DNA of 34,960 bases from a virus (Duplodnaviria; Caudoviricetes), in the IMG/VR virus record IMGVR_UViG_3300032329_000033, positions 1 through 34,960 of that record; one strand, 5' to 3'. The position numbers and the translations under genes are program-made. Every line of letters begins with the position of its first letter. Within the stretch, counting starts at the first letter, position 1. Shown piece by piece: positions 1,233-34,960 of the stretch. Below the pieces are notes generated by a model. The model was not told the DNA's origin. It worked only from the letters and a program-made list of their open reading frames with translations, and did no database searches.

Positions 1233-1519
1233 CCACGTTGAAAGAAAAGAAGCACATGAGTGCGGTGGCTGAACTGGGGTGCGCTGTTTGTCGCAGGATG
1301 GGCTATGCGGGCACCCCTGCTGAATTGCACCATCCAAGGCGATTGGCGGGGGGCTGGGGACGTTCTAGCCACATGAGTGTCATACCGCTATGCCCAGAGC
1401 ATCATCGCGGCTCTACGGGCGTTCACGGGCTGGGCACCAAGGGCTTCGAAAAGCACTACGGGTACGACGAAGCCGATTTATTAAAAGAAACATTAGAACT
1501 TTTAGGAGTTGAAGCATGA
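1229..1519 (+). CDS. Ref-family (P1 recombination enhancement, RecA-dependent) HNH nuclease
   Basis: LGCAVC...ELHH...IPLCPEHHRG...GVH...FEKHYG is the Ref/HNH zinc-binding pattern. Confidence 0.8.
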   Translation: MTTLKEKKHMSAVAELGCAVCRRMGYAGTPAELHHPRRLAGGWGRSSHMSVIPLCPEHHRGSTGVHGLGTKGFEKHYGYDEADLLKETLELLGVEA

Positions 1520-4775: not shown

Positions 4776-5402
4776 ATGCCAGAAACACCGAAGGGGCCAA
4801 AGAAGCCCGCAAAGACCACTAGAGCGGCACAGGAGGCCGCAAAAGCCATTGGGAAGGCTAAGGTAGCCGCAAAGGCCACGAAGGCTTCTACGCCCGCTAA
4901 AAAGACAGGACGACCAAGCAAGTACGATCCTGAGATTGCTCGTGTGATCTGTGAGCAGTTAAGCGAAGGCATTCCATTACGCCAGATATGCAGAAACAAC
5001 GAAGGCTTTCCTGCGTGGAGGACGGTTTACGATTGGATGGGACGCGACGAAGAGCTTTCCGCATCCATCGCGCGCGCCCGTGACATCGGTTATGACGCAA
5101 TCGCCGAGGAATGTCTCCAGATTGCCGATACGATCCACCTCGGCCAGCGCAAGGTGTACAGCGCAGGCGCAGAGGAGGGTGAGGACAGCGTGACCGTCCA
5201 TGAGGAGGATATGCTCGGCCACCGCAAGCTCCAGATCGAGACTCGGCTCAAGCTCTTGGCGAAGTTCCACCCGACCAAGTACGGTGACAAGCTGGGCCTG
5301 CACGGCGTGGAGGGTGCCGCCCCGATCTCCACCGAGGATGCTACGGCCAGCAAGTTCCTTGAAGTGATCCGCAATATGGAGATGACAAAGCGTGTTGGCT
5401 GA
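4776..5402 (+). CDS. terS: Terminase small subunit (Sf6 gp1-like) with Lys/Ala-rich N-terminal extension
   Basis: GRPSKY...ICEQLSEGIPLRQIC...PAWRTVYDW HTH; RKLQIETRLKLLAK..P.KYGDK; directly upstream of TerL. Confidence 0.9.
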   Translation: MPETPKGPKKPAKTTRAAQEAAKAIGKAKVAAKATKASTPAKKTGRPSKYDPEIARVICEQLSEGIPLRQICRNNEGFPAWRTVYDWMGRDEELSASIARARDIGYDAIAEECLQIADTIHLGQRKVYSAGAEEGEDSVTVHEEDMLGHRKLQIETRLKLLAKFHPTKYGDKLGLHGVEGAAPISTEDATASKFLEVIRNMEMTKRVG

Positions 5403-6827: not shown

Positions 6828-9800
6828 ATGACCGACCCTATCAAACTTGGCAAAGGCATAACTGGCGCATTGACCAAGGCGAAGGAGTTGGCGCAAGCCC
6901 GTAAGGCGGCATTGCAGTTGGGCGGCAAAGAGTTGCCAGTGACCATGCACCCAGTCGAGGTGCGCGAGGGCAACGTGTTCGCCAACGTCAACCCGCAAGC
7001 ATTCGATAAGGCGTTTAAGAAGAGTAGCTGGCAGTATGTCGGGCCACAAGGCGAAGGCGGCATCGGTGACCGATATAACAAGTTTGGCGAGTTCATAAAA
7101 AATGCGCCATCAATGAACGCCAGCAATGTGTCAATTGGCAAGAATGGCATCCCTGTATTTGGCGATGGCCGCCACCGCTACGCCTATCTGCGTGATCAAG
7201 GCGTTGAGAACATCCCCATGTCGATGGACAAGCAGTCGTTAGAGAATGCCAGACTGCACGGCCTGCTGAATGAGGCTGACGCGCCGATTGATCGAGGGGG
7301 CAACCTTGCTAAGTTCCTTGAAGGTAGCAAGGTGCAGACACCTGTCTATCACGGCACACAAGGCGACTTCAACGAGTTCAAGATTGGCCCACGCGGCAAG
7401 GTTACTAGCGGCATCTACACTGGTTCCAATCCCGATGTAGCCAATATTTATGCAACTGGCGAAGGCGCGAATGTCATGCCCTTGCATATCTCGCTAAAGA
7501 ACCCAGCGACTGAAGACGACACGATCCGCATTTTTGACTCACTGCCATTGGATCAGGTAGACACGCCCAAGAAGCGCATGAAGGTCTTGCAAGACATGGG
7601 CTTTGACGGCATCACATACAACACTGGAAACTCAGGCAATGCTTACCACATCGCCTTTGATCCAAAGCAAGTTAAGTCAGCAATCGGCAACGAGGGTACA
7701 TTCGACCCAGACATCGCCGACATTACTAAAGCCACTGGCGGAGGAGTTCATATGGCAGACGCAGGAAAAGTAACCAAGGGAATAGTTGGTGCGCTGACCA
7801 AGGCTACCGAGATTGCCAGAGCAGAGAAAGCCCTTCCCAAGGTTGATCGCTTAAGCATGAACTACAAAGATGTGACCAAGCGAGTTCCAGAAGTGGCAGA
7901 CGCTCTTGAAAGACTGCTCAAAGGCGAGATCACCAAAGCTGAGTACAACGACGTTGTGAATATGTACAAGCCCGTTACGCCGTACTCGTTTGTGCCCAAG
8001 CCTGCTACGTCTGAGGAGGCCATCGGCGCATTGCGTGGTGATGCCGCCAAGGCACGATACGGCAAACAGGAAGAATACGAACCCGGCTCCAAGGTGGGAC
8101 TGCGTCTTGACATCCCGGCGTACACGGGCAAAGGCGTGTGGGTAAATTCAATCCACGACGAGGTTGGCAAGAAAGTCGCCTATGGCCCCACAGCCAGCGT
8201 CAAGAACGCAAACCTTGGCATTAGCCAGAACGAGTCCAAACGAATCGCTCAAGGTGGCGCAAAAGCCCCATATGCCAAAATTAAAGGTGAATGGAATCCA
8301 TTGAGTGAGGAAGAGGCTGTAGCCAAAGCCCAAGAGTATTTGGATCACCCTGAATGGCGACAGATTGGAATGGATCCCGAACGCCATTCGTACTTCTATG
8401 ACCGCCACACGATGGAACCAATCACTGGAGCTGAAGAGGTGATTCAAATCGGGCCGCTGGTGCTGGGCAAAAATCCCAAGTATGGCAAGATCGAAGACTT
8501 TGACTACGCTACTGGCGGAGGAGTAAGACACATGGCTAAAGCTGGTCGAGTAGGCGACATCGTCGAGGGCGGACTGTCCGTCATCAACAAAGCCAAAGAA
8601 ATTGCAAAGGCCCGCAAAGCCGCCGCTGAAGGCTCCAAGATCGAGGAAGTGTTGGCAAGCCAGACTCCTCCCATGACCACGCCCAGCGGCACAGGATTGC
8701 CTCTCATGCCCCGTGAGCAGGGTATGTACACACCACGCGAGCAAAAAGACTTGCCGCGCATGGTGAACGTAGATAAGGCGCGCGCCGCTGGTGAGAAACC
8801 TAAGTACAACGAGCGTATGCAAGACTTGCTTGACAGCCCCAAGGCTCGCAAGAAGGTGGACAAGCTGATCAACCAAGGCAAAGACTTAAACGTGCAGGAG
8901 TGGTACGGCACTGAACCCTTGCGCCAAGTGGCTATGGATGCTGGTCGCACACCAGAGCAGTTTGAGTCGCTGATGGCGCAGTTGGCAAGCGCCAGCCAAC
9001 GCAACCCTGTGGACAAACAAAACCAAATGGGTTCGTACCTATACCACTTGAGCGAGACAGGCCAACTGCCTGAAAACTCATTGCTTCTGACCAATAAGCT
9101 CAAAGAGGCGCTGAAGGCTGACCCATCATTGGCTGAAGGTCGTCAACTCGTGGAGTTGCCATCTGGCTATGGATCGCTGGCGCAGGGTGACATTTTCAAT
9201 CGCGCCGTGATGATTGGTCAGGGCAACATTGGTGAAGCTTTGCCCCCCAACAAAAAGCTTGGCACGTTCTACGAGAACTTGCTTGGCAACCTAAAGCCCG
9301 TGACGGTGGATGTAAATGCCCTGCGTGGCCCCATCATCGAGCAAGGTGACCCACGCTGGCTGACCAGCAAACTTGTCGAGAAGGACGAGAAGGGCAACAT
9401 CATCAACAGCTACAAACCCCGCGAAATGTACGACACGGGCGAGATGACGATGCGTGAGGCACAGCAACGCCCCGGCTTCTGGGAGGCCGCGCCCTCTGGC
9501 TCTGAATATGCAGGCTTTGAGGACTTGTGGCAACGTGGTGCCAAGCGTCACAACATCGAGCCAGCAGAAGCGCAAGCCCTTGGCTGGTATGGCTCCGCTG
9601 ATGTGACAGCGCTCAAGACCAAGCCTGAGAATTATGTGGACAACCTTGAGCGCCTGATCAAGCGCACCGCCGAGCAAACAGGTCAGTCGCCCACCAAAGT
9701 GATGAATGACCTTGTTACGGGCGAAGGCTTCCTCCGCAAGAAAGGTGGCGCAGTTGAAGGGCCGCACTGGCACAAGGTATTCAACCGCAAGATGGCTGAA

Positions 9801-10340
9801 GGCGGCTATGCATGGGTTGACGACAAACATATTCCCAAAGTTCGTTCGCTTAAGCGCATGGCAAAGGGTGGCTCATCAGATGAGCCTACAACCAGAGAAA
9901 TTATGGAGGCCATGCCCCAAGTGATCAAAGAGGCGACAAGCGAAGAGGCCGAGTCCTACAAGAAACCGCGCTCGGTGTCTGATGTTATTTACCGTGGCGT
10001 TGTTGCCAACAATCCACTCAGTTTTGGTGTTGATATGACCAACGCTGTTTTGAGTGGCGTAGATGCTTTATCTGGCATGGCTGGACATCCGACTCGGTTA
10101 TCGAGTGAAAAGCCATTCGGTGGTTCTGAACACGTTAAAGACTTGATGGACAAATATGGCGTAACTTCTGGAGAGCAAAGACCAATTTCTGAAACTGTGC
10201 TTGGTTTGTTCTCTCCAACTGGAATGATCAAAGGCGCAATGGGTGCAGGCAAAGCCATGCATAAGAGTGGCACTGCAATCAGGGACGCAATTGGCGCGTC
10301 GCCTAAGAAGGCTCGTGGCGGCTTAACCTTAATGAGATAA
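6828..10340 (+). CDS. Large modular polyvalent-type protein: ParB/Srx-like, ADP-ribosyltransferase-like, unknown domain, DUF7178/HhH-like, hydrophobic C-terminal module
   Basis: GDGRHR (ParB-like, about nt 7160). VYHGT...GIY...VMPLHISLKNP...GFDGI...AFDPKQVKSAIGNEGTFD (ART-PolyVal-like). WY...ASQRNPV..Q...KLGTFYENLLG...VTVD...AQALGW. Modules are separated by xAxGG/xKKGG motifs. Confidence 0.75.
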   Translation: MTDPIKLGKGITGALTKAKELAQARKAALQLGGKELPVTMHPVEVREGNVFANVNPQAFDKAFKKSSWQYVGPQGEGGIGDRYNKFGEFIKNAPSMNASNVSIGKNGIPVFGDGRHRYAYLRDQGVENIPMSMDKQSLENARLHGLLNEADAPIDRGGNLAKFLEGSKVQTPVYHGTQGDFNEFKIGPRGKVTSGIYTGSNPDVANIYATGEGANVMPLHISLKNPATEDDTIRIFDSLPLDQVDTPKKRMKVLQDMGFDGITYNTGNSGNAYHIAFDPKQVKSAIGNEGTFDPDIADITKATGGGVHMADAGKVTKGIVGALTKATEIARAEKALPKVDRLSMNYKDVTKRVPEVADALERLLKGEITKAEYNDVVNMYKPVTPYSFVPKPATSEEAIGALRGDAAKARYGKQEEYEPGSKVGLRLDIPAYTGKGVWVNSIHDEVGKKVAYGPTASVKNANLGISQNESKRIAQGGAKAPYAKIKGEWNPLSEEEAVAKAQEYLDHPEWRQIGMDPERHSYFYDRHTMEPITGAEEVIQIGPLVLGKNPKYGKIEDFDYATGGGVRHMAKAGRVGDIVEGGLSVINKAKEIAKARKAAAEGSKIEEVLASQTPPMTTPSGTGLPLMPREQGMYTPREQKDLPRMVNVDKARAAGEKPKYNERMQDLLDSPKARKKVDKLINQGKDLNVQEWYGTEPLRQVAMDAGRTPEQFESLMAQLASASQRNPVDKQNQMGSYLYHLSETGQLPENSLLLTNKLKEALKADPSLAEGRQLVELPSGYGSLAQGDIFNRAVMIGQGNIGEALPPNKKLGTFYENLLGNLKPVTVDVNALRGPIIEQGDPRWLTSKLVEKDEKGNIINSYKPREMYDTGEMTMREAQQRPGFWEAAPSGSEYAGFEDLWQRGAKRHNIEPAEAQALGWYGSADVTALKTKPENYVDNLERLIKRTAEQTGQSPTKVMNDLVTGEGFLRKKGGAVEGPHWHKVFNRKMAEGGYAWVDDKHIPKVRSLKRMAKGGSSDEPTTREIMEAMPQVIKEATSEEAESYKKPRSVSDVIYRGVVANNPLSFGVDMTNAVLSGVDALSGMAGHPTRLSSEKPFGGSEHVKDLMDKYGVTSGEQRPISETVLGLFSPTGMIKGAMGAGKAMHKSGTAIRDAIGASPKKARGGLTLMR

Positions 10341-10342
10341 CT

Positions 10343-12853
10343 ATGGCAACACAATTTCCAATTGATCCAAACGCAGACCGCTTTATTGACGGTTTGAAGA
10401 TGACCGACGATGGTGGTGTTGTTGCTGATCTGCCTGATGATGATGAGCTTGGCGTAGAGGAGCTTGACGACGGTTCCGCCATCGTTAACTTGCAGGACTT
10501 CAAAGGCCCAACGGAAGACGAAGACTTTTACTCCAACCTTGCGGAGACCATGAACCTCTATGACATGGAGAAGATTGGAATGCGTTACCTTGACTTGATT
10601 GACAAGGATAAGGAAGCCCGCGAAAAGCGTGACAAGCAATACGAAGAGGGATTGAAGCGGACTGGCTTGGGGGATGATGCCCCCGGCGGTGCGAACTTCT
10701 TCGGTGCATCCAAGGTCGTCCACCCAATCATGGCCGAAGCCTGCGTGGACTTTGCCTCCCGCGCTATCAAAGAGATGTTTCCACCTGATGGCCCTGTCCG
10801 CACCAAAGTGCTTGGCGAGGTGACTGAGGAGAAGACCGAGGTAGCCGAGCGTAAGCGCGATTACATGAACTGGCAGTTGACTGAGCAGATCGAAGAGTTC
10901 CGCGATGAGCAAGAGCAGTTGCTGACGCAGTTGCCTTTAGGTGGCTCGCAGTTTATGAAGATTTGGTACGACGACACCAAGCGTCGCCCTTGCGCTGAGT
11001 TTGTGCCTATCGACAACATGATCCTGCCCTTCTCTGCTGTGAACTTTTACACCGCCCAGCGCGTGACTGAACAGCAAGACATCACTGGCTGGGAGATGCA
11101 ACAGCGCATTGACCGTGGCCTGTACCGCGACATCAGCTTTATCCGCGCAACGGACGAGCCAGAGCAAACCAAAGCTGAAAAAGCCAACGACAAGATTGAA
11201 GGCAAAGAATTTAACGAAAATGAAGACGGTCTGCGCCGTGTCTACCACATCTACACTTGGTTGAACATTGACGACGATCCAGTGACCAAGGGCGAGACAG
11301 CCCCGTACATCCTGATGATCGACGAGCTTGAGAGCAAAGTGCTTGGCCTTTACCGTAACTGGGAAGAGGGGGACTCCACCATGACCAAGCTCGACTGGCT
11401 GGTCGAGTTCAAATTCATCCCTTGGAGGGGCGCGTATGCCATCGGGCTACCTCACCTCATCGGAGGTCTTTCCGCCGCCTTGACGGGCGCATTACGGGCT
11501 TTGCTGGACACCGCACACATCAACAACTCGGCTACCATGCTGAAGTTAAAGGGTGCCCGCATTTCTGGCGCAAGCCAGCAGATCGAAGTCACGCAGGTCA
11601 CCGAGATCGAGTCCGCTGTTGGCGTAGATGACATCAGGAAGATTGCGATGCCAATGCCTTTCAACCCGCCCAGCCCCGTGCTGTTTGAGTTGCTAGGCTG
11701 GATTACCACAGCGGCCAAAGGCGTGGTCACCACCGCAGAAGAAAAGATTGCAGATGCCAACAGCAATATGCCAGTGGGAACCACGCAAGCATTGATTGAG
11801 CAGGGAGCCGCAGTGTTCTCTGCCATTCACGCCCGCTTGCATGAAAGCCAGCGCCGTGTGTTGCAGGTGCTTGGTCGCTTGAACCGTTGGTATTTGGATG
11901 AGCAAAAGCGTGGTGATGTGGTGGCCGATTTGGAGATCAAGCGCGAAGACTTCAAGCGCAACAGCGATGTGATCCCCGTATCCGATCCCCACATCTTTTC
12001 CGAGACTCAGCGTATTGCTCAAATGCAGTCTGTGTTGCAGATGTCTGCACAGTTCCCTGCCTTGTTTGACCAACGTGCTGTTGTGAACCGTATGCTCAAA
12101 CAGTTGAAGGTTCCAAACGTCAATGAGTTGATCCCCAACGCAAGCAAACCAATTGAGATGAACGCCGCAGATGAGAACTCTGCTATGTCTCTTGGCCGTC
12201 CAGCGTTTGCATATCCTCGTCAGGATCACTTGGCGCACATCCAAGCGCACATGGACTTTGGCCTCGATCCAACCTTGGGATCAAATAAGCTGATTGCGCC
12301 CAAGTTCATACCCAATGCGCTTGAACACATCAAGCAACATATGCTGTTGTGGTACACGCAGAACATGAGCAAGTACGTCCAAGGCAATGGCGATGTGGAC
12401 TTTGGCAAGTACGAAGACAGCAAGCTGGTCAAAGAGATTGACAACGCTATTGCGCTGGCTTCCGCGCATATGAAGCTGGACTCCGCAGAGGTGTTCAGTG
12501 GTTTGTTGCCTGCGCTCGATCGGTTGGGCCAGATCATGCAACAGTTCAAACCACCACCACCACCAATGGATGGCGAAGCGCAAGCCGTGTTGCAGGCTTC
12601 TATGGCAGAGACCCAGCGTCGCGCCGCAGAGGATCAGGCACGACTTGCCTTTGATACTCAGAAATTCCAAGCCGAGATGCAGGCAAAACAAGCGGCGGAG
12701 CAGATCAAGGTGGCTATGAACGCCGAAAACAACTTGACTACCGAGCGCATCAAGACCGCAGAGTTGACCGTGGACGAGGTCAAACTACGACAGGAGCAGG
12801 AGAAAACTGCTGTGAAACTTAACCAAGAAACCCAACGTAACTTAGGAGATTGA
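10343..12853 (+). CDS. Portal protein (P22-like, with C-terminal coiled-coil barrel)
   Basis: 836 aa after TerL. GASKVVHPIMAEACVDF, DYMNWQLTE, PVGTTQALIEQGAAVFSAIHARLH, IPVSDP; helical Gln-rich tail. Confidence 0.9.
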   Translation: MATQFPIDPNADRFIDGLKMTDDGGVVADLPDDDELGVEELDDGSAIVNLQDFKGPTEDEDFYSNLAETMNLYDMEKIGMRYLDLIDKDKEAREKRDKQYEEGLKRTGLGDDAPGGANFFGASKVVHPIMAEACVDFASRAIKEMFPPDGPVRTKVLGEVTEEKTEVAERKRDYMNWQLTEQIEEFRDEQEQLLTQLPLGGSQFMKIWYDDTKRRPCAEFVPIDNMILPFSAVNFYTAQRVTEQQDITGWEMQQRIDRGLYRDISFIRATDEPEQTKAEKANDKIEGKEFNENEDGLRRVYHIYTWLNIDDDPVTKGETAPYILMIDELESKVLGLYRNWEEGDSTMTKLDWLVEFKFIPWRGAYAIGLPHLIGGLSAALTGALRALLDTAHINNSATMLKLKGARISGASQQIEVTQVTEIESAVGVDDIRKIAMPMPFNPPSPVLFELLGWITTAAKGVVTTAEEKIADANSNMPVGTTQALIEQGAAVFSAIHARLHESQRRVLQVLGRLNRWYLDEQKRGDVVADLEIKREDFKRNSDVIPVSDPHIFSETQRIAQMQSVLQMSAQFPALFDQRAVVNRMLKQLKVPNVNELIPNASKPIEMNAADENSAMSLGRPAFAYPRQDHLAHIQAHMDFGLDPTLGSNKLIAPKFIPNALEHIKQHMLLWYTQNMSKYVQGNGDVDFGKYEDSKLVKEIDNAIALASAHMKLDSAEVFSGLLPALDRLGQIMQQFKPPPPPMDGEAQAVLQASMAETQRRAAEDQARLAFDTQKFQAEMQAKQAAEQIKVAMNAENNLTTERIKTAELTVDEVKLRQEQEKTAVKLNQETQRNLGD

Positions 12854-12854
12854 A

Positions 12855-13043
12855 ATGGCTACAAATAGTAACGAAATCAAAGAATATCAAAGCGAACAAG
12901 TTAGCCAACGCGCCCGCATCGCGTCTGGTGCTTGGCTTGATGGTCAACAAATGAAAGAGAAGCAGACAGCGACAATGCCTTTGGCTAATAGCGATCACGG
13001 GAATTTCTCCCAAAACAAGGGCGTTGACAAGAAAAACGCATGA
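12855..13043 (+). CDS. Hypothetical protein (62 aa)
   Basis: AGGAG RBS; lies in the head operon. Confidence 0.7.
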   Translation: MATNSNEIKEYQSEQVSQRARIASGAWLDGQQMKEKQTATMPLANSDHGNFSQNKGVDKKNA

Positions 13044-13225
13044 GGTATACCTCCGACTTCATCGGCGCTGTAAAAGCGCGTAAAGAAGCTATTACGCAGA
13101 GTTTGGCGGTGGGTAATGCCTCCGACTACCCTGCGTATCAGCGACTGGTCGGACATATCGCTGGACTTGAAGAAGCCCTTGTCATTCTTGATAACCTTTT
13201 AAAGGAAGAAGACGATGACAGATAG
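13040..13225 (+). CDS. Small helical head-operon protein (61 aa)
   Basis: LAVG...DYPAYQRLVGHIAGLEEA, a type of gene commonly found between portal and GroES in this phage group. Confidence 0.75.
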   Translation: MRYTSDFIGAVKARKEAITQSLAVGNASDYPAYQRLVGHIAGLEEALVILDNLLKEEDDDR

Positions 13226-13649
13226 CACGGTGGCTGGTGATTCAGCCGATTTGCGGGAAGCCTTTCCTGCTGTAGACCCCGGTGCAAAACCCCTCGGCGC
13301 AAGAGTTTTAGTACAACTGCGTCGAACAAAGAAGACGGTAACTGCAAGCGGGATTGTTTTGGTCTCCGAGACCAGAGAAACCGAAAAATGGCAAAACATG
13401 GTCGGTAAAGTCATTGAGCTAGGCCCAATCGCTTTTAAGAAGCGAGACACAATGGAGCCTTGGGTCGAAGGTACTTGGTGTGAGGTAGGAGACTACATTC
13501 GCGTACCTAAATGGGGTGGTGATCGTTGGGAGGTTCCAGTCCCCGGCGCACTAAATGATGATGATCCAGCCCTCTTCATGGTTCTAAACGACCATGAAGT
13601 TATTGCCAAACTCACTGGTGACCCACTTGCAATGAAGGCATTCATATGA
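13215..13649 (+). CDS. groES: Co-chaperonin GroES-like protein
   Basis: KPLGARVLVQ, TASGIVL, GKVIELGP, VGDYI, LNDHEVIA. Confidence 0.9.
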   Translation: MTDSTVAGDSADLREAFPAVDPGAKPLGARVLVQLRRTKKTVTASGIVLVSETRETEKWQNMVGKVIELGPIAFKKRDTMEPWVEGTWCEVGDYIRVPKWGGDRWEVPVPGALNDDDPALFMVLNDHEVIAKLTGDPLAMKAFI

Positions 13650-14617
13650 GTACCGATACAGAACAAGAAGTAATCGTCATTCAAGAGGAGAAAGACGGCT
13701 CCGCGACGATTGATTTACCCGCAAGCATCCCTTCGCCTGACGTAAACCACGAAGAGGACTCCGAAGAGGCGGATAACGCCGCCAGACAAGCCGAAATGGC
13801 CGCTGGTGGTCAGCTTGACGCTGAAGCTGAAGCCTTGAGAGAGCAAAAACGCCTCAAAAGGCTCAAGCGCAAGGAGTATCACAAGCAAGTTTCGACTGAA
13901 AAAGACCATAAATTGGACTTTTTGAGCCGCCAAAACCAAGAACTGCTCGAAAGACTGTCGGTTTTGGAAAAAAAGTCGCATGGTAGCGACCTTGCTCGCC
14001 TCAATAAGGCGATGGAAGACCAACATAACCGCATTTTGTTTGCAAAACAGAAAATTGCCGAGGCTACACGCGCAGGCAATGGCGAAATGCTTACTTCCGC
14101 GCAAGAAATGTGGTTTGAAGCGCGTCGTCAGTTTGAGGCATTGGATTCAGTCAAGAAGAAAGCGACTGCCCAGCCTCGCCAACGCACAATTCAAGCCCCT
14201 GATCCTCAATTGCAACGTCATGCATCGGAATGGATGGAATCAAATCAATGGTACGACCCCAATGGTCGAGACCCTGATTCAAGAGTTGCATTAACGATTG
14301 ATCAAGCAATGGCTGAAGAGGGTTGGAACCCAAAAACGCCTCAATATTGGGAAGAGCTTGACAACCGCTTGCAAAAGTATCTACCTCACAGGTATACTGG
14401 GGAGGCAGACGAGAGACCAACTCAGAAGCGCCCAAGAAACTTCGTAACTGGGTCAGGCCGCGAGAGTGCATCGAGTAATGTGATTGGCAAGAATCAATTT
14501 GCGTTAACACGCGATCAAGTTCAAGCCATGAAAGATGCTGGAATGTGGGATGACCCCGATAAACGTGCAAAGATGATTCGTCGCTATGCACTTGAAGCTA
14601 AACAACTTAGGAGCTAA
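13646..14617 (+). CDS. Putative capsid scaffolding protein
   Basis: Acidic N-terminus, long coiled coil, W...N.WY motif, C-terminal LTRDQVQAMK..G; position before the capsid genes. Confidence 0.7.
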   Translation: MSTDTEQEVIVIQEEKDGSATIDLPASIPSPDVNHEEDSEEADNAARQAEMAAGGQLDAEAEALREQKRLKRLKRKEYHKQVSTEKDHKLDFLSRQNQELLERLSVLEKKSHGSDLARLNKAMEDQHNRILFAKQKIAEATRAGNGEMLTSAQEMWFEARRQFEALDSVKKKATAQPRQRTIQAPDPQLQRHASEWMESNQWYDPNGRDPDSRVALTIDQAMAEEGWNPKTPQYWEELDNRLQKYLPHRYTGEADERPTQKRPRNFVTGSGRESASSNVIGKNQFALTRDQVQAMKDAGMWDDPDKRAKMIRRYALEAKQLRS

Positions 14618-14619
14618 AA

Positions 14620-15156
14620 ATGGATTCTCGTTTAAAAAAATCATTGTCTGCTGGTGGACGCGAAAGTCGCGCGAGTCTTGACCAAAGTCGAGAGGCACCA
14701 GAACAGCAATTCGTGTCAGCCGAAGAACGTCGCAAGATGTGGAAGGATGAATGGACACAAAGCGCATTGCCTGCTATTCCCGAAATCAAGGGATGGCACC
14801 TTTGCTGGTTATCGACCACGAATAGTTATGACAGCATCGACAAACGTATTCGTCTAGGTTACGTCCCTGTGAAAGCAGAGGAAGTGCCGGGGATGGAGAA
14901 CAATAAAGTCAAAGCTGGGGAACACGTTGGATTTATTGCGTGTAATGAGATGCTCTTGTACAAGATTCCGAATGAAATGTATCAAGATGTCATGGCTCAT
15001 TTTCACCATGAAGCGCCACTTGAAGATGCGAACAAAATCCGTCTACAAGCAGAGCAGATTCAAGGCCGCGATAGTTCTGGCAAGCCCTTGGGCCGAGTCG
15101 AAGGTGAAGGTTTGGAAGGCATTGATAAACCGATGCCAGCACCTGTTTTTAACTAA
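14620..15156 (+). CDS. Conserved head-operon hypothetical protein (178 aa)
   Basis: AGGAG RBS; ALPAIP..GWHLCWLS...RLGYVPV...EMLLYKIP. Confidence 0.8.
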   Translation: MDSRLKKSLSAGGRESRASLDQSREAPEQQFVSAEERRKMWKDEWTQSALPAIPEIKGWHLCWLSTTNSYDSIDKRIRLGYVPVKAEEVPGMENNKVKAGEHVGFIACNEMLLYKIPNEMYQDVMAHFHHEAPLEDANKIRLQAEQIQGRDSSGKPLGRVEGEGLEGIDKPMPAPVFN

Positions 15157-15194
15157 ACAAGCTGGTTAAATGTAACTGATCATAGGAGAGACTC

Positions 15195-15767
15195 ATGTCT
15201 TCATTAAATCAGCCGTTTGGTTTGCGTCCTTCGTTCCACCCCACGGGTTTGGATCGTGCTGTCGCATTGCCTAACGGTATCGCCTCTGGTTATAGCACTG
15301 GTATTTTGAAAGGCCAGCCTGTAGCCCTTAACACTTCTGGAAACATCATTGCCGCGACCGCTGGTAGTGCCTATCAAGGCGCTTTCGCTGGTCAAGAGTA
15401 CACCGATCTTTCTGGTCGCCGTCAAATCAGCAACCAATGGATTGCTTCAACTGCTTATCAAACTGGTTCGCAAGTTACCTACTACTATTCTGATCCGAAT
15501 ATCGTTTACGACATTCAGTGTGATGGTAGCTTGGCTCAAACTTCGATTGGTGATCAAGCAAACTTCAGCAACATTTCCGCTGGTTCAACAACCACTGGTT
15601 TGTCGCAATGCACTATCTCTTCGAGTTTAGTGGGTTCGGGTGCCGTTGGTGATCTTCGTATCATCAATTTGACTCCCGCTGTTGATAACGCATGGGGTGA
15701 TGCATACACCGTGGTACAGGTTCAAGTGAGCCGTAGCCAGTATGTTGCAACCATTAACGCATTCTAA
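15195..15767 (+). CDS. Putative capsid decoration/minor capsid protein
   Basis: PFGLRP, IASGY, DPNIVYDIQ motifs; beta-rich; immediately before the MCP. Confidence 0.7.
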   Translation: MSSLNQPFGLRPSFHPTGLDRAVALPNGIASGYSTGILKGQPVALNTSGNIIAATAGSAYQGAFAGQEYTDLSGRRQISNQWIASTAYQTGSQVTYYYSDPNIVYDIQCDGSLAQTSIGDQANFSNISAGSTTTGLSQCTISSSLVGSGAVGDLRIINLTPAVDNAWGDAYTVVQVQVSRSQYVATINAF

Positions 15768-15779
15768 GGAGAATAAATA

Positions 15780-16694
15780 ATGGCCGCACCAATGCGCAGT
15801 ACGGACTTTAGAAGCATCGTTGAGCCTATCCTCAACGAGTGTTTCGATGGAGTCTATGACCAACGTACCGATGAATGGTCACGAGTTTTCCGTGAGCAAG
15901 AAGGTATTCCCCGTAACTACCACGAAGAGCCAGTCCTTTATGGATTTGGTGCCGCACCTCAACTGCCTGACGGAACTCCTGTTTCGTATCAGCAGGGTGG
16001 TGTTCTCTTCTTGCAACGCTATGTTTACAACGTGTATGGCTTGGCCTTCGCGTTGACCAAAGTGTTGGTTGAAGATGGCGACCATATCCGTATCGGTCAG
16101 GTTTACGCCAAGCACTTGGCTCAGTCATTGATTGAGACCAAAGAGACTTTGGCCGCAAACGTGTTGAACCGCGCTTTCAACTCATCCTACCCCGGTGGTG
16201 ATGGTGTGTCGCTGATCAACACCGCGCACCCCATCGTGAATGGTACTTTTAGCAACCAGTTGGCTACCGCCGCAAACCTGTCGCAGACATCGCTTGAGCA
16301 GATGCTGATTCAGATTCGCCAAGCTGTGGATAACAACCAGAAGAAGATTCGTTTGGTTCCCCGCCAGTTGGTGGTGGCACCGGGCAACGTCTTCCAAGCT
16401 GAAGTGTTGCTCAAGTCCGTGTTGCGTTCTGGCACTGCTAACAACGATCTGAACCCTGTCAAGTCTATTGGCTTGCTGGACGAAGGTGCCGCTGTTATCA
16501 GCCGTTTGACTTCTTCCACCGCATGGTGGGTACAGACCGATGCACCAGAGGGCATGAAGCTCTTGATGCGTCGTCGTCTTGAGAAGACAATGGAAGGCGA
16601 CTTCGAGACTGACTCTATGCGCTACAAGGCGACAGAGCGTTACCAAGTCGGTTTCACTGACCCACGCGCTTTGTACGGTACACCCGGCGTGTAA
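15780..16694 (+). CDS. Major capsid protein (HK97 fold, Mu GpT-like group)
   Basis: Strong RBS (AAGGAG). GFGAAP, GGDGVSL...HP, PRQLVVAP, DFETDSMRYKATERY..GFTDPRALYG; followed by a terminator. Confidence 0.92.
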   Translation: MAAPMRSTDFRSIVEPILNECFDGVYDQRTDEWSRVFREQEGIPRNYHEEPVLYGFGAAPQLPDGTPVSYQQGGVLFLQRYVYNVYGLAFALTKVLVEDGDHIRIGQVYAKHLAQSLIETKETLAANVLNRAFNSSYPGGDGVSLINTAHPIVNGTFSNQLATAANLSQTSLEQMLIQIRQAVDNNQKKIRLVPRQLVVAPGNVFQAEVLLKSVLRSGTANNDLNPVKSIGLLDEGAAVISRLTSSTAWWVQTDAPEGMKLLMRRRLEKTMEGDFETDSMRYKATERYQVGFTDPRALYGTPGV

Positions 16695-16701
16695 AGCAAA
16701 C

Positions 16702-16734
16702 AGGGGCGGGCATAAAATCCTGCCCCTTTTTTTT
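16702..16734 (+). terminator. Rho-independent terminator after MCP
   Basis: AGGGGCGGG...CCTGCCCCT stem followed by a T-run. Confidence 0.85.
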
Positions 16735-16766
16735 AATTTTTCGTCAAACTTTTCAAGGAGCAGACG

Positions 16767-17750
16767 ATGCCTCAATTTTCTGATGACTTATTCTTAGGCC
16801 CAGCCCAAACTTACATGGGCACGGGCATTCGCCCCTATACCACTACCGCAACTGGCGGCACTGGTGGGATTTCTTCTTCTACTTTGCAAATTACCGCTTT
16901 GAACCAAGGCGCTCAAATTGCTTTGGGTATGTATGTTGACGGTACAAGCGTGACCGATGGAACCTACATCACTGCTTTTGGCACTGGTACTGGCGGCATT
17001 GGTACTTACACGCTGAACCAATCCATCAACATTGCAAATACAACCGCGCTGACTATGCACGGCAACATTGCTTTTGATGATCCATCTCCAATGGATTTGG
17101 GTATTGGCCCACTGGGTCGCATCTATGTTTGGGATGTAATTCCACAAGCCAAGGTTGCAAACAATCTTGCAACTGCACAGTCTCCTACTAGCGCGTTCAC
17201 TCTGACCGCTGGCACTTCGGTGAAAGCTGTGACATTGAACAACGGTTCCACTGGTTATGCTCTTGATCTGCCCCGCGCATTGATCATTACCATCGGCACT
17301 GGCACCATTACTAACCGCAACATCACGATCAGCGGCTTTGACTACTACGGTCAAGCCATGAGCGAAGTGATTGCTACTGGTACAACCCAGTCTACAACCG
17401 TAAGCGGCAAGAAAGCCTTCTTCATCGTAACGTCAATCACCACTTCTGGTGCTGTTGGCGGTACTGTTGCAGTTGGTACAACCGATATTCTCGGTCTGCC
17501 TGTTCGCGTGTTTAACGTGGCTTATTTGGCAAGCGTCAAGAGCAACAACACATTGGCGCAAGACGCTGGTACGTTTGTCGCCGCTGACACCGCTACGGCA
17601 ACCACCACCACTGGTGACGTTCGTGGTACATACACTCCTGCTACGGCTTCGGACGGCATCGTTCGCACTGTGGCAGGCATTTTGTTGCCCGGTATTGCTG
17701 TCGGCCCCAATGCTACGCGCACTGGTGCCCTTGGCGTAACCCAAGCCTAA
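16767..17750 (+). CDS. Virion structural protein (Thr/Gly-rich, head decoration/fibre-like)
   Basis: 327 aa after MCP; ITISGFDYYGQAMSEVI...GKKAF motif; AAGGAG RBS. Confidence 0.75.
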   Translation: MPQFSDDLFLGPAQTYMGTGIRPYTTTATGGTGGISSSTLQITALNQGAQIALGMYVDGTSVTDGTYITAFGTGTGGIGTYTLNQSINIANTTALTMHGNIAFDDPSPMDLGIGPLGRIYVWDVIPQAKVANNLATAQSPTSAFTLTAGTSVKAVTLNNGSTGYALDLPRALIITIGTGTITNRNITISGFDYYGQAMSEVIATGTTQSTTVSGKKAFFIVTSITTSGAVGGTVAVGTTDILGLPVRVFNVAYLASVKSNNTLAQDAGTFVAADTATATTTTGDVRGTYTPATASDGIVRTVAGILLPGIAVGPNATRTGALGVTQA

Positions 17751-17761
17751 AGGAGAGCGAC

Positions 17762-18868
17762 ATGGGACAATTTAAACCAATGGTCAAAATGATGACCACT
17801 GAGCCTACAGTTGAGTTAAAGCTCAAAAAAGGTGGCATGGTCAAAATGAAAAAAGGTGGTAGCACTACCAAAGCCAAGAAAATGGCTATGGGTGGTGGCG
17901 CTATGGAAGCACTTGCTGGTACGCCCGCGCTTGTGGGTCGTCCCGCTGTGAATGCTCCCGTGCAGACCCCCGGCAAGCCCTCGATGGCGGCTCGTCGCAA
18001 AGCAATGATGGCTAAGAAGCCAATGGGCATGGGAACGCCATCTGGCCCCGCTATGCCTGCTGGCAATCCAGCACTGCCCGCAATGAAAAAAGGCGGCAAG
18101 ATGGCTGAAGGTGGCAAGTCTGATATGGCACAAGACAAGGCCATGATCAAGAAAGCGTTTAAGCAACACGATATGCAAGAGCATAAAGGTGGCAAGGGTA
18201 CATCTTTGAAGCTCAAAAAAGGTGGTATGAAGAAATTTGCCACTGGCGGAGCAATTCCCTCTGAAGAGTCATATGGTGACTACGACACAACCAAAGTCTA
18301 CTCAGCCAAAAAAGACTCTGCCAGCGGTACTGGTGGCGTAAAGAACGGGAATGCGGGTGGCTTTAAACGTGGCGGTAAAGCCATGAAGATGGCAACAGGT
18401 GGCGCTATTCCTTCCGAGGAATCTTACGGTGACTATGACACTACTAAGGTTTATCAAGCCAAGCCCGACAGCGCAAGCGGTACAGGCGGTGTTCGTATGG
18501 GCAATGCTGGTGGATTCAAGCGTGGTGGCAAAGCAAAAATGGCTACTGGTGGCGTAATGGAATCCAACGGCGGTGGTTACCGTAAAGGCGGTGCCACAAA
18601 AAAGTTTGCTAATGGGGGAAGTGTGCAAGACGACGGTGGCCCTGAGAAGATGCCCCAAGGTCGTAAGCCAGTCCCCCAGCCAGTAGAGATCAATGCTCTT
18701 GCTGGCACTTACAAACAAGGCGGTAAAGTTGCCCCCGGTAACAAAGCTCTCCAAGCGAGCTTTAATAAGATGAACGCTCCTGCGATGCGTGAAGCAAAAG
18801 CAAAGAGTGTTGAGGCTTATGCCCCAATGGGTTCCGTTGTTCGCAAGAACAGAGGTGGAATGTGCTGA
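17762..18868 (+). CDS. Basic Lys/Gly/Met-rich repeat protein with 14 hydrophobic-[K/A/R]-x-GG motifs (putative internal virion protein)
   Basis: LKKGG, MKKGG, MAMGG, MAEGG, FATGG, FKRGG, MATGG, YRKGG, FANGG, YKQGG and repeats of these; AAGGAG RBS; followed by a terminator. Confidence 0.8.
   Translation: MGQFKPMVKMMTTEPTVELKLKKGGMVKMKKGGSTTKAKKMAMGGGAMEALAGTPALVGRPAVNAPVQTPGKPSMAARRKAMMAKKPMGMGTPSGPAMPAGNPALPAMKKGGKMAEGGKSDMAQDKAMIKKAFKQHDMQEHKGGKGTSLKLKKGGMKKFATGGAIPSEESYGDYDTTKVYSAKKDSASGTGGVKNGNAGGFKRGGKAMKMATGGAIPSEESYGDYDTTKVYQAKPDSASGTGGVRMGNAGGFKRGGKAKMATGGVMESNGGGYRKGGATKKFANGGSVQDDGGPEKMPQGRKPVPQPVEINALAGTYKQGGKVAPGNKALQASFNKMNAPAMREAKAKSVEAYAPMGSVVRKNRGGMC
18233..18540 (+). repeat. 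Tandem ~51-codon intragenic repeat (2 copies, plus a partial third)
   Basis: K[F/M]ATGGAIPSEESYGDYDTTKVYxAKxDSASGTGGVxxGNAGGFKRGGKA occurs twice. Confidence 0.9.
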
Positions 18869-18872
18869 AATG

Positions 18873-18898
18873 AAGTGGGGGCTTCGGCCCCCGCTTTT
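18873..18898 (+). terminator. Rho-independent terminator
   Basis: AAGTGGGGGC-TTCG-GCCCCCGCTT followed by TT. Confidence 0.85.
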
Positions 18899-18912
18899 AA
18901 TTGGAGATTTAT

Positions 18913-19713
18913 ATGAGTAATGGAATTGTTGCCTCAGTTACACGCGCTGGCGCATATGAACCGTTTGAATTACAAGTGTCTCGTGGTCAAATCATGGGTC
19001 ACAGCACAGCAAATATTTTTGCTTACGGAACTACTCCTTCTACAGCAGGATTGTTTAGAACCGTGTGGGAAAACATGGCATCAACAGACTATGTATTTCC
19101 ATCATCTGCATCCACAATGAATTTGGTTAGTACGGTGGCAGGAGATACCGCCACCATCACAATTACTGGAACAGATGCCAGTTACAACTTAATTTCTGAA
19201 AGTTTGGTTTTAAACGGAACAACCAATGTTCCAACAACTAAATCATATTTTCGTATTAACAACATATCAGTATCCGCTGGTTCGGCAACTAACCCTACAG
19301 GCGTGATTACATTGTCTGTCAGTTCAACCGTTTACGCTCAAATCAACACACAAGTTGTTAACGGAGTGACTAGCAGTATTGGTACATCTCAGATGGGTGT
19401 GTATACCGTACCTGCTGGCTATACTTTTTATGGTTATAGATACGGTGCATATTCATCATTCAACGGCAATACGGCTAACTACACAACGTACAGGGCATTA
19501 AGCAATGCTTCTTCTGGTGTGCAAAAAGTTATTGTGCAAACACCATTTAATACCACTTACGAAGTTCAAAGGCATTTTCCATTTCCTTACTCTTCTGGAT
19601 CGGATTTGAGATTTCAAGTTGCAAGCAGTGCCGCAACAGCCGCAGTAGTAAGCATCAATATTGGCGGTGTCTTGATAGAAAACAACAACAACGTCACTGG
19701 TTCGGGTACTTGA
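18913..19713 (+). CDS. Putative virion structural protein (266 aa, beta-rich)
   Basis: GGAG RBS before ATG 18913; FELQVSRGQI.GH...TVW....YVFPSSA..M. Confidence 0.75.
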   Translation: MSNGIVASVTRAGAYEPFELQVSRGQIMGHSTANIFAYGTTPSTAGLFRTVWENMASTDYVFPSSASTMNLVSTVAGDTATITITGTDASYNLISESLVLNGTTNVPTTKSYFRINNISVSAGSATNPTGVITLSVSSTVYAQINTQVVNGVTSSIGTSQMGVYTVPAGYTFYGYRYGAYSSFNGNTANYTTYRALSNASSGVQKVIVQTPFNTTYEVQRHFPFPYSSGSDLRFQVASSAATAAVVSINIGGVLIENNNNVTGSGT

Positions 19714-19715
19714 TC

Positions 19716-20240
19716 ATGCCAAGCAAATCACCTTCCCAACATCGTTTGATGGAGGCGGTCGCACATAACCCTGCGTTCGCCAAAAAGGTGCGTATTCCCC
19801 AAAAAGTTGGCAAAGAGTTCGCTCGTGCTGATGAGGGGAAAAAACTTAAAGGAGGCGGATTGTATGACAACATCAATGCAAAGCGTGAAAGAATCGCTGA
19901 AGGCTCTGGCGAAAAAATGCGTCGAGTTGGTAGCAAAGGTGCGCCAACGGCTGAAGCCTTCCGAGAGTCAGCAAAAACCGCCAAATTGAAAGAAGGCGGG
20001 CCAAGCCTTGCTGTTGGCCGAGGTGAAAAACTTTCGACAAAAGCAGGTGCAGGGCTTACGCAAAAAGGTCGAGACAAGTACAATCGAGAGACTGGTTCAC
20101 ATTTAAAAGCACCCCAGCCACAGGGAGGCGCGCGCAAAGACTCGTTCTGCGCTCGAATGAGCGGAATGGCTGGGCCAATGAAAGATGAAAAGGGCGAGCC
20201 GACTCGTAAAGCGGCGGCGCTTGCACGTTGGAAGTGTTGA
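19716..20240 (+). CDS. Basic tri-modular protein; C-terminal module DUF6321-like
   Basis: Module 1 MPSKSPSQHRLMEAVAHNP, linker LKGGG, module 2 LYDNINAKRERI...GAPTAEAF, linker LKEGG, module 3 GLTQKGRDKYNRETGS.LKAP...SFCARM...WKC. Confidence 0.75.
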   Translation: MPSKSPSQHRLMEAVAHNPAFAKKVRIPQKVGKEFARADEGKKLKGGGLYDNINAKRERIAEGSGEKMRRVGSKGAPTAEAFRESAKTAKLKEGGPSLAVGRGEKLSTKAGAGLTQKGRDKYNRETGSHLKAPQPQGGARKDSFCARMSGMAGPMKDEKGEPTRKAAALARWKC

Positions 20241-20241
20241 T

Positions 20242-20634
20242 ATGTCTAAAGTTAAAAAATTAGCTGAAGGTGGAATTTCATCTTTAGGTAGTATCCTTAA
20301 TGTGGGAATTTCCGACGGCCCGTATATGCCCGGCTCACCTCTAAATCCCCTCAATGCCCCATCTTTTGGCGGAAGCATCGGCGGTGGTGGTGAAGGTGGT
20401 GGTGGTGCTGAAGCAGGTCTTAGTCAAATTGACGCTGGCGCAAATACTGTGCGAAGCGCAATCAGTTCTGCACAAAGCGCACTTGGGGGTGGTGGTGGTA
20501 ACAGTTATCCTTCTTATATATATAAAAATGGCGGCTCTGTTAAAAATAGCTACACAACCAAAGATGGCAAACTGAATTTAGGCTCTGGTCGAATTTCTAC
20601 AGCCTCAAAAAATAAATCAACACCTAACTGGTAA
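20242..20634 (+). CDS. Gly-rich low-complexity protein with conserved C-terminal tag
   Basis: MSKVKKLAEGG...YKNGGSV...GKLNLGSGRISTASKNKSTPNW. Confidence 0.7.
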   Translation: MSKVKKLAEGGISSLGSILNVGISDGPYMPGSPLNPLNAPSFGGSIGGGGEGGGGAEAGLSQIDAGANTVRSAISSAQSALGGGGGNSYPSYIYKNGGSVKNSYTTKDGKLNLGSGRISTASKNKSTPNW

Positions 20635-20643
20635 AGAATAATC

Positions 20644-21135
20644 ATGTCGTCAATACCATACAAGCCAATGGCCCAAATGCCAAAAACAGTTGCAAAAAAA
20701 CCGTCAGTCAGTATTCCAAAAATGACTCCAGCAAACACTGTAAAAGCTGGAACAAATCCATTTAATACTGGAAAAGTAATGCCAATGCCCGGCAAACTTC
20801 AAGTAATGCCAAAGCCAAATCCACCGACAATGCCCGGTGGCGGCATGACTCAGTTTACAGGTGGCCCAATGCCCCTTCCAAACCCACCAACAACGAGCGC
20901 CACACCAGACATAATTTCTGGCGGAATTTCAGATGTTGGAGGAAACTACGGTTCCGGAAGAGACCCTTTTAGTGGTCAACCAATGCCAACTGCCGCCGCA
21001 TATAAAAAAGGTGGTCATGTTAAAGCCAGCAAGACTGAATCCAAGAAAAGTTACACATCAAGCGGCGGAAAAATCAATTTAAGTTCTGGCCGAGTGTCAA
21101 CAGCCTCAAAGAATAAAAAAAATCCTAACTGGTAA
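20644..21135 (+). CDS. Pro/Met-rich low-complexity protein with the same C-terminal tag
   Basis: ...YKKGGHV...GKINLSSGRVSTASKNKKNPNW. Confidence 0.75.
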   Translation: MSSIPYKPMAQMPKTVAKKPSVSIPKMTPANTVKAGTNPFNTGKVMPMPGKLQVMPKPNPPTMPGGGMTQFTGGPMPLPNPPTTSATPDIISGGISDVGGNYGSGRDPFSGQPMPTAAAYKKGGHVKASKTESKKSYTSSGGKINLSSGRVSTASKNKKNPNW

Positions 21136-32017: not shown

Positions 32018-33249
32018 TGAGTTACAACAGCCCGTTTACTGGCAACGTCATCCAGCCAACTGACGTATCGTATCGTCGCATCATTCTGACGAATGATTTG
32101 CAATTGACATGGCCCATCAACGGAACAACTACTGATGATGCCGCCGCTCGAATCATGGAGGTGTCAACCACCACCACAGCAAACGAGTTGTGGATGCCTC
32201 CTGCCAATCAAGCATCGGTAGGTCAAGACGCATTGATCCGCAATGTAGGGTCTGTTTCTCTAACGGTTAAAGATTTTACTGGCGCAAACACCATTGTCAC
32301 GGTTGCCGCTGGTCAGGCGCAGTACATCTACATCACCACAAATGCCACTACATTTGGTACTTGGGGAATCATTGCTTATGGTATTGGTTCTTCGGGTGCA
32401 GATGCCGCAACCTTGGCTGGTTATGGATTGCTTGCTATTGGTCAGACGTTGAATCAAAGTCAGCCAGTCACCACGTTTTCAAGCAATTACACAGCGGTAG
32501 CGGCAGACCGATCCAATACTTATGTGTGGACAGGTGGCGCTGGGACAATTACTTTGACGCTGGCTTCAACGCTGGGCGACAACTGGTTTATGTTTTTGCG
32601 TAACAGCGGAACTGGCGCTTTGACTGTAGCCTGTTCTGGTGGCAACACAATCAACGCTTCGTCAACCATTGCTTTACAGCCAAGCGACTCTTGCATCATT
32701 GTTTGTAGCGGTACAACTTTCTACACGGTTGGTCTTGGTAAATCTACGCAATTTGCGTTTACTCAATTGTCAAAAGCTGTAAGCACTGGCACATATACGT
32801 TGACGGCTTCAGAGGCTTCTAACGTAATCCAAAAGTACACAGGCGCGTTGAGCGGAAACGTCACAATCATTGTGCCGTCAACCGTGCAGGTTTATTACAT
32901 TTTGAACGAGACTTCTGGCGCATACACTGTAACCATCTCTACAGGCTCTGGTGGCACGGCTGTGCTGACTGCTGGTAGCCAAGCAACACTGGTTTGCGAC
33001 TCGGTTAATTTGTACAACGCCAACACAATTCTGGCTGGCTCTTCATCTATTAGCTTGAGCAGTGGCTCTGTTGGTGCGCCTTCATTGAACTTTGCGGCAG
33101 AGACAACAACTGGTGTTTATCGTGCCGCTTCTGGCGAGTTTGATATTGCAATTCTTGGCGTGAACCTTTTTGCTTTAACGGCAACTGGATTGCAGATTAA
33201 CGGCACGGGAACCTTTACTGGCGGAATATCTGGCGGAGTATTTACATGA
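32017..33249 (+). CDS. Tail-associated structural protein (410 aa)
   Basis: TAATG coupling; beta-rich; GS..APSLNF...TTTG.Y motif; ends SGGVFT. Confidence 0.75.
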   Translation: MSYNSPFTGNVIQPTDVSYRRIILTNDLQLTWPINGTTTDDAAARIMEVSTTTTANELWMPPANQASVGQDALIRNVGSVSLTVKDFTGANTIVTVAAGQAQYIYITTNATTFGTWGIIAYGIGSSGADAATLAGYGLLAIGQTLNQSQPVTTFSSNYTAVAADRSNTYVWTGGAGTITLTLASTLGDNWFMFLRNSGTGALTVACSGGNTINASSTIALQPSDSCIIVCSGTTFYTVGLGKSTQFAFTQLSKAVSTGTYTLTASEASNVIQKYTGALSGNVTIIVPSTVQVYYILNETSGAYTVTISTGSGGTAVLTAGSQATLVCDSVNLYNANTILAGSSSISLSSGSVGAPSLNFAAETTTGVYRAASGEFDIAILGVNLFALTATGLQINGTGTFTGGISGGVFT

Positions 33250-34958: not shown

Positions 34959-34960
34959 AC

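Follow-up and report, generated by a model that had tools for sequence, protein, structure and literature searches.

Late proteins sharing a glycine-glycine motif

The window analyzed here is a whole linear virus record of the Caudoviricetes (IMGVR_UViG_3300032329_000033), 34,960 bases long and estimated to be 62% complete. Five of its late open reading frames (ORFs) carry short copies of a motif ending in Gly-Gly, referred to below as tags, which an earlier note on this DNA had described as x[KAR]xGG and placed at module boundaries. All the copies listed there were recovered, 26 in five ORFs (6 + 15 + 2 + 2 + 1), and one degenerate copy in the putative scaffold, MAAGG, had been overlooked. 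The motif is genuine, and in late, non-shell proteins it sits where exchangeable modules meet. The tagged features of the window are the following:

6828..10340, + strand: pre-portal polyvalent protein (Pfam/PHROG), 1170 aa, tags at residues 301, 560, 970, 989, 1011, and 1161
7728..7742, + strand: tag KATGG, 9 residues past the end of the ART-PolyVal match
8505..8519, + strand: tag YATGG
9735..9872, + strand: three tags, RKKGG, MAEGG, and MAKGG, at spacings of 19 and 22 residues
10308..10322, + strand: terminal tag KARGG
13796-13810: scaffold tag MAAGG, in a variable acidic linker, found in 36% of 58 homologs
17762..18868, + strand: basic tag-repeat protein, 368 aa, pI 10.2, 15 tags lying 6-67 residues apart
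19716..20240, + strand: ORF of three small basic modules, phrog_16759 (residues 1-43), phrog_16028 (48-92), and DUF6321 (112-172)
19845-19859 and 19986-20000, + strand: tags LKGGG and LKEGG (residues 44 and 91) at the module joints of the preceding ORF
20242..20634, + strand: 130-aa low-complexity protein, tags at 20260-20274 and 20521-20535 (residues 7 and 94), then a Trp-ended tail
20644..21135, + strand: 163-aa Pro-rich protein, tag at 21001-21015 (residue 120), then a Trp-ended tail

The 1170-aa protein begins with an N-terminal region and an ART-PolyVal domain (172-292), followed by tag 301, a module resembling L5 gp82, tag 560, a DUF7178-like module, the tags at 970/989/1011, a 150-aa module, and tag 1161, after which five residues remain. 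No Pfam or PHROG family was matched by the 368-aa protein, whose tags comprise 14 copies plus a terminal KNRGG. Its residues 159-209 are duplicated tag-to-tag as 210-259 (window 18236-18538); the two copies agree in 43/48 residues but in only 99/144 bases, which suggests that this 51-residue unit is under selection. Each of the three modules of ORF 19716 is encoded elsewhere as a separate PHROG gene. The last two ORFs of the list are otherwise unrelated and share a C-terminal basic module of ~25 residues with a terminal Trp; short tag-plus-Trp tails were seen repeatedly in relatives.

Definition and enrichment of the motif

The loose pattern x[KAR]xGG proved too permissive. Over 43 window genes it gave 40 hits against 20.4 expected, only twice chance, and 13 of these fell in nine other genes, including those for the portal, the GroES-like protein, and the tail fibers; it also matched IAQGG, internal to a domain of the 1170-aa protein, and reached no significance in ORF 19716 (p 0.24) or ORF 20644 (p 0.36). 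The tighter form [MFYLKHR][AK]xGG, hereafter the strict tag, occurred 26 times against 4.5 expected from composition-preserving shuffles, with 24 hits in the five ORFs, one in the scaffold, and one in the nozzle gene. Gly/Lys composition, which the earlier note had named as a possible trivial explanation, therefore does not account for the excess.

Because the strict tag was chosen after inspection of the window, it was re-tested on 80 related loci, all close kin (capsid 92-99% identical). Observed and expected counts were 838 and 59.5 in the repeat protein (69 distinct sequences, the window's own included), 85 and 11.9 in the small basic family (74 sequences), 21 and 1.5 in the scaffold (58 homologs), and 9 and 3.1 in the adaptor (54). 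In the portal they were 6 and 5.8 (53), in the major capsid protein 0 and 5.0 (65), and in the cement protein 0 and 4.2 (70). The proposed regex check on related loci thus returned enrichment in late non-shell proteins and none in the capsid. The companion claim, that portal and capsid lack the motif, stands for the strict tag, and the loose pattern does hit the portal. Four whole relatives had observed/expected counts of 21/6.2, 23/5.4, 26/7.7, and 22/6.1. Reading the capsid depletion as a signature of cleavage was considered and rejected, as the CRP-901 clade, which is free of the end module described below, is similarly below its shuffles (28 tags vs ~61, summed over those 40 of the 80 loci that measure at least 11 kb).

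The full motif can be written [MFYLKHR]-[AK]-x-G-G-x-[V/A/I], the second position after GG favoring V, A, or I. At 1193 GG sites the position two before GG is K in 39% and A in 29%, and the bulky residue lies three before; counted back from the end of GG in the repeat protein, residue 4 is A or K in 68% of sites and residue 5 is bulky. Pro is frequent directly after GG. The Gly codons of the tags vary freely, so selection acts on the protein. No published description of the motif was found in the literature searched, subscription papers being largely outside its reach.

Tags at the seams of exchangeable modules

Pre-portal proteins of the relatives range from ~350 to 1850 aa, many of them cut by the 10-kb flank. 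When 40 of them were split at their tags, 118 segments of at least 70 aa resulted, of which 97 fell into 17 classes that occur in varying order: B-J-D-G in the window, C-Q-B-H-G in L031, and B-D-E in L027, for example. The window's classes B, J, D, and G reappear in other orders in 39 homologs. After masking of the tags, 1031 internal alignment ends (not mutually independent) were available, of which 27% lay within 10 aa of a tag, compared with 8% at random. The ART-PolyVal match ended 9-18 aa ahead of a tag in eight of nine proteins, the ninth having two copies of the domain, and wherever modules A, B, C, and E adjoin one another a tag was present (48/48). The claim that the motif falls between modules accordingly holds for most joints; it does not extend to the region before ART-PolyVal in the window (residues 1-300), which is joined to that domain directly. 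A further feature is a terminal tag followed by 2-33 trailing residues, present in 33/40 pre-portal and 67/69 repeat proteins.

Fused and stand-alone copies of the same module

A loading address would be expected on fused and stand-alone modules alike, and a separation signal on fused ones only. In the related loci, the DUF6321 module had a tag directly upstream in 23/23 fused and 0/8 stand-alone copies, and the eight stand-alone proteins contained no tag anywhere. Six of the eight start M-[AS]-K-K-N, their Met being in register with the bulky residue of L-K-E-G-G. Module B was preceded by a tag in 26/26 fused and 0/2 stand-alone copies, both of the latter carrying one at the far end. In the protein database, the tag was found with 75/76 fused and 0/23 stand-alone DUF6321 copies; the regular expression missed 21/120 hits, which by eye were 19 fused and tagged and 2 stand-alone and untagged. 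All 92 fused database copies of module B were tagged. Both database queries carried a tag themselves, so tagged hits were favored.

The earlier note had left a cleavage site and a docking tag side by side; because stand-alone DUF6321 genes lack the tag, the data tilt toward cleavage. A plain linker would likewise predict the fused-only pattern, but not a fixed residue pattern with free codons. This comparison, the codon test, the clade co-occurrence, and the predicted cut register given below are new to the present analysis.

A candidate reader at the end of the pilot protein

All five near-complete relatives encode, 3' of the nozzle gene, a hypervariable protein of ~990-1730 aa, the pilot protein, which ends in two or three tags and a module of ~60 residues. 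In relatives this gene lies a few genes downstream of the nozzle, a region outside the present record, and the module had no match within the window. Among clusters at 50% identity, 13,264 are related to it. The 150 best-scoring hits contain 308 strict tags, of which 291 are placed 20-60 aa ahead of the module core. An hhalign comparison made for the relatives (the gene lies beyond the window) linked it at 99% to a tape-measure-type subfamily, and PDB and PHROG entries were matched as well. Its profile detects the tape measures of Douge (E 1.5e-28), JBD30 (1.6e-13), and lambda (0.0017), and among tape measures the motif is at most 30 aa upstream of the end module in 66/114. A single Gly and a single Glu are invariant across two linked subfamilies. 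No Pfam family was matched by the module, and two AlphaFold monomer models consisted of helices only, without strands, for which fold searches returned nothing significant: a best Z of 2.7 (VIA), 0 matches (Foldseek PDB), and none at E<=0.001 (BFVD). Set beside glutamic or aspartic autoproteases, which have a known fold and a catalytic pair of residues, the module offers a single invariant Glu. A complex prediction with two end modules and a tag-bearing 36-mer of the 368-aa protein gave no answer (0.03) and was used neither way.

The tag excess follows this module between clades. The module was present in 17/17 window-clade contigs (including 12/12 further contigs) and in 0/14 contigs of the CRP-901 clade, which shows no tag excess and in which even contigs at least 90% complete lacked it (0/6). 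Ten named phages were compared over 40-50 kb each, six with and four without the module. Observed/expected tags in module-positive phages were 23/6.3 for MW202545, 12/5.3 for DSL-LC04, 11/5.4 for HTVC027P, and 13/5.9 for HTVC023P, the last raised by Gly runs; the four module-negative phages showed no excess. Presence in 6/6 positive and 0/4 negative phages was confined to the pilot module and the ejection gene that follows. This co-occurrence fits the module as a candidate reader of the tag. The portal, capsid, cement, GroES-like, and adaptor families were rejected as readers, being common to tag-free relatives.

In one complete relative (G004), a predicted metal-dependent hydrolase (PF10118, L095:7643-8326) is encoded two genes 5' of the pilot gene; no match to it was found in the other (G001). 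On many contigs (L473-L592), the Glu-containing module (G-P-S-H subfamily) is carried by short basic proteins that end soon after it, apparently outside any tape measure or giant pilot protein. Between its nozzle and pilot genes, MW202545 encodes a ketoacyl synthase and a small protein that may be an acyl carrier (L083:14938-16316); its pilot and next ejection proteins are unusually Cys-rich.

The motif in cultured phages

In crAss001, gp45 contains nine x[AK]xGG copies against 2.4 expected (p 0.0004), eight motif copies being counted by eye, and the other 26 late proteins gave only one relaxed-pattern hit. In natural gp45 variants, 110 aa are missing, with both borders of the gap precisely at tags; the homolog search returned near-identical proteins only. 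In the structures (PDB 7QOG/7QOI/7QOJ/7QOL/8CKB), the resolved pieces are residues 214-245 in the tail and 425-552 at the portal, 420 A apart, and one intact chain was assumed (Bayfield et al., PMC10172136). Both pieces lie between tags, residue 425 being the Ala of N-A-F-G-G. Residues 425-428 would be lost from the domain if this copy were cut after GG; the structure is thus compatible with an uncut chain or with cleavage behind the bulky position. The four regions seen by mass spectrometry and named in the text of PMC10172136 are tag-free tryptic peptides, a reading that the full figure map may alter. Homology between the gp45 domain and the pilot end module is only suggested: hhalign gave 1-6% (6%, E 0.006, via an intermediate family, which is weak), an atlas neighbor at 0.84 is a lead only, and PF25725 (CARG1) was found in 0/5 pilot proteins of the relatives.

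In lambda gpH, tags lie at residues 733, 778, and 842, around the end module. According to the text available of PMC12617516, gpH is cut near its C terminus at a site not mapped, and the product gpH* is estimated at ~78 kDa; a cut at 733 is predicted to give 79.8 + 12.5 kDa. For JBD30 gp46, the authors predicted a "hook" at the site of the end module (PMC11445458, in part). The accessible portions of the phiCbK, CL31, DT57C, and Douge papers contain no mapped cut at such a motif.

Function of the motif

We give roughly an even chance to the reading that the motif is a protease recognition signal, at which fused precursors would be separated into pieces during head assembly. The tagged proteins are presumably head cargo, as judged from their late-operon position, their ART-PolyVal/polyvalent domains, and the analogy with crAss001 gp45. 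The cut would be placed directly behind the bulky residue and not behind GG, and the pieces would then start with Ala/Lys-x-Gly-Gly, much like the stand-alone gene start after removal of Met. The 368-aa protein would be broken into ~16 short basic peptides, which would probably act as a core that can be removed or as DNA-neutralizing filler. The least certain step is the reader, which may be the ~60-residue, one-invariant-Glu module at the end of the relatives' pilot/ejection protein, acting as an oligomer; the same module lies near the C terminus of lambda-type tape measures. A host or unrecognized protease would be the alternative reader.

Several observations weigh against cleavage. Untagged joints exist, as at residues 1-300 of the window's protein, several long segments, of up to 1142 aa, combine two or more domains without an intervening tag, and the terminal tags, which are the rule, separate no folded module. 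Module B is tagged at or behind a short leader in 11/25 stand-alone-like forms, the start being possibly mis-called in 4 of them. No known protease family was matched in the window's 29 scanned genes (the early genes and the truncated nozzle being outside the scan) or in 98 proteins of two complete relatives (60/85 ORFs of G001, 38/65 of G004), so that the earlier remark that no prohead protease is recognizable holds over this wider set. The PHROG "head and protease" matches cover the capsid part only, and no peptidase Pfam was found in the window's pre-portal protein (5 pieces) or 24 homologs, many modules of which have no family. One invariant Gly and one invariant Glu would be thin for an enzyme. 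The co-occurrence of tags and module is based on two clades and ten named phages, among which the module-positive RW (5 tags vs 5.0) and Pag-Yong1 (9 vs 7.9) show little or no excess. Bayfield et al. treat gp45 as uncut, with "cleav" and "protease" occurring 0 times in the main text as available (PMC10172136). Position 733 of gpH is just beyond the 691-730 working range modeled for gpH* (PMC12617516, in part), and the part of PMC11445458 concerned describes no peptidase motif at the JBD30 hook.

An uncut docking or address tag is possible though doubtful. As a short beta-turn-strand, the motif would attach to the portal, the scaffold, or the pilot end module and so bring multi-module cargo into the prohead, with avidity added by the repeats. 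This would suit the terminal tags, the lack of a recognized protease, the recurring short helices after the motif, its position at the beginning of the tape-measure end module, and the fact that the first ordered residues of the portal-bound gp45 domain are tag residues. It is harder to reconcile with the tag-free starts of stand-alone DUF6321 proteins beside fully tagged fused seams; an address need not sit at every joint, and most ejection-protein genes beside the pilot gene in complete relatives lack the strict tag.

Quite unlikely is a flexible hinge and recombination seam without a dedicated reader, that is, a linker tolerated between modules and spread by copying. Indels and duplications do run tag-to-tag, and a linker would also be expected in fused forms only; however, bulky, A/K, x, G, G, x, V/A/I positions are conserved across unrelated proteins and phages while synonymous variation is free, the 51-aa duplicate has kept its residues far better than its bases, and the tag excess follows one gene module between clades. 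A nucleotide signal (an internal Shine-Dalgarno sequence before an in-frame Met, giving nested proteins) or mere Gly/Lys composition is extremely improbable: the commonest spacing of tandem tags is 8 residues (22 cases), with a Met three codons after GG, but among 1169 tags GGA serves as the first Gly codon in 3.9% (3.1% with Met following) against a 13.4% background, which all but rules out the internal Shine-Dalgarno sequence, and the shuffles speak against composition.

Returning to cleavage, a much broader form of it is conceivable but unlikely. Short-tailed phages, crassviruses, and lambda-type siphophages would share a single unrecognized maturation code, in which a Glu-dependent module on the first-ejected protein would cut after the bulky residue of phi-[AK]-x-G-G. 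It would act in cis in tape measures (Phe733/Ala734 of lambda gpH) and in trans in the present podophage family, breaking polyproteins down into individual effectors and basic peptides.

Cleavage at the motif would mean that a large podophage family of fresh and marine waters, in which no head protease is recognizable, builds its injected cargo by a plug-in grammar. In that case, these five residues would also predict the lambda gpH cut, whose site is given as not known in the available text of PMC12617516, and would offer a simpler account of the gp45 pieces seen 420 A apart. Even an uncleaved, bound motif would be a transferable address by which proteins are loaded into phage heads. The gpH, gp45, and podophage-cargo points are testable on cultured phages, partly from existing mass spectra.

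Relation to known systems

The 1170-aa protein qualifies as a polyvalent protein: like those of phages (PMC5512222, in part), it is a multi-domain late protein with ART-PolyVal beside terminase and portal, it has three more recurring modules, its gene lies between TerL and the portal gene, and its homologs carry LPD23, PcfJ, ParB_N, and DUF7178. For such proteins, packaging followed by proteolytic release of domains has been proposed (Iyer et al. 2017, PMC5512222). In the portions of that paper available, the processing enzyme is an MPTase or papain-like domain, neither of which was matched here, and no common junction motif is named, whereas the present motif extends to small basic and pilot proteins. 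With crAss001 gp45 (cargo C1) the system shares the motif, a gene 3' of the tail-end gene, and small basic modules between tags; the first part of the portal-bound gp45 domain ends in E-x-G-E-V. Tape measures (lambda gpH/gpHC, the JBD30 gp46 "hook" at 1022-1066, Douge gp16) have the same end module with the motif adjoining. The present phage differs in its short-tail genes (SU10-type adaptors, nozzle) and in the position of the module at the end of a pilot protein; its tags are spread over at least six genes, whereas those of tape measures keep to the neighborhood of the module.

The T4 prohead protease gp21 acts with a capsid targeting sequence, and phiKZ and SPN3US have head proteases. As in T4/phiKZ cargo systems, one short code is found on unrelated head-cargo proteins and a scaffold. 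The T4 code, however, is an N-terminal leader with x-E, and the code here is internal or C-terminal and has GG; no such protease family was found in the genes scanned. The system thus resembles T4-type cargo processing in its working and, lacking a recognizable prohead protease, falls outside that class. The Gly-Gly pair in viral core or precursor proteins recalls adenain, ASFV pS273R, ubiquitin/SUMO proteases, and C39 leaders, analogies which the earlier note had drawn and which fail in detail. In the adenain consensus, (M/I/L)xGG-X, the bulky residue is two positions before GG, whereas it is three before in the tags, where Pro often follows GG. No C39, C48, C5, or JAB family was matched in the 29 window genes or the 98 relative proteins, which leaves adenain/ASFV/Ulp-type processing (C5, C48) without its cognate cysteine protease. 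The tags are internal and C-terminal, unlike C39 double-glycine leaders, and, unlike ubiquitin/SUMO conjugation, there are trailing residues after the terminal tags and no matches in the scanned genes to beta-grasp/E1/E2/JAB families.

Gene context of the window

The late operon runs in the order TerS, TerL, 1170-aa protein, portal, GroES-like protein, putative scaffold, 178-aa protein, putative cement, and major capsid, followed by several accessory genes, SU10-type adaptors, tail fibers, lysis genes, and a truncated nozzle gene. The scaffold, cement, and nozzle labels are taken from position and from annotations in relatives. The surrounding features are the following:

5392-6825: TerL, 5' of the 1170-aa gene
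10343..12853, + strand: portal (phrog_1216), without a strict tag
13215-13649: GroES-like co-chaperonin within the head operon, matched in all ten named relatives
13646..14617, + strand: putative scaffold, by position and coiled-coil character
14620-15156: conserved 178-aa head-operon protein with no assigned function
15780..16694, + strand: major capsid protein, no tag in 65 homologs
33246..34960, + strand: truncated tail-nozzle gene, running to the end of the record

The major capsid protein is 91% identical to that of MW202545, 78% to those of the Caulobacter phages RW/GB2A/RLK/KcrB, and ~40% to those of HTVC023P, HTVC027P, CRP-901, and DSL-LC04; no solved structure of it was found. A degenerate tag, L-[SN]-[AD]-G-G, is conserved at the start of the 178-aa protein, homologs of which occur in CRP-901, a phage lacking tags. 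An acidic motif, D-G-[SG]-[AV]-x-[VI]-x-L, is shared by the N termini of the portal (10343-10500, two copies) and the scaffold (13646-13720) and can be seen in almost every one of the 56 scaffolds aligned, possibly as a second docking code of acidic type. An early gene of 245 aa (window 1516-2253) encodes a protein that seems to resemble phage PAPS-reductase-like proteins.

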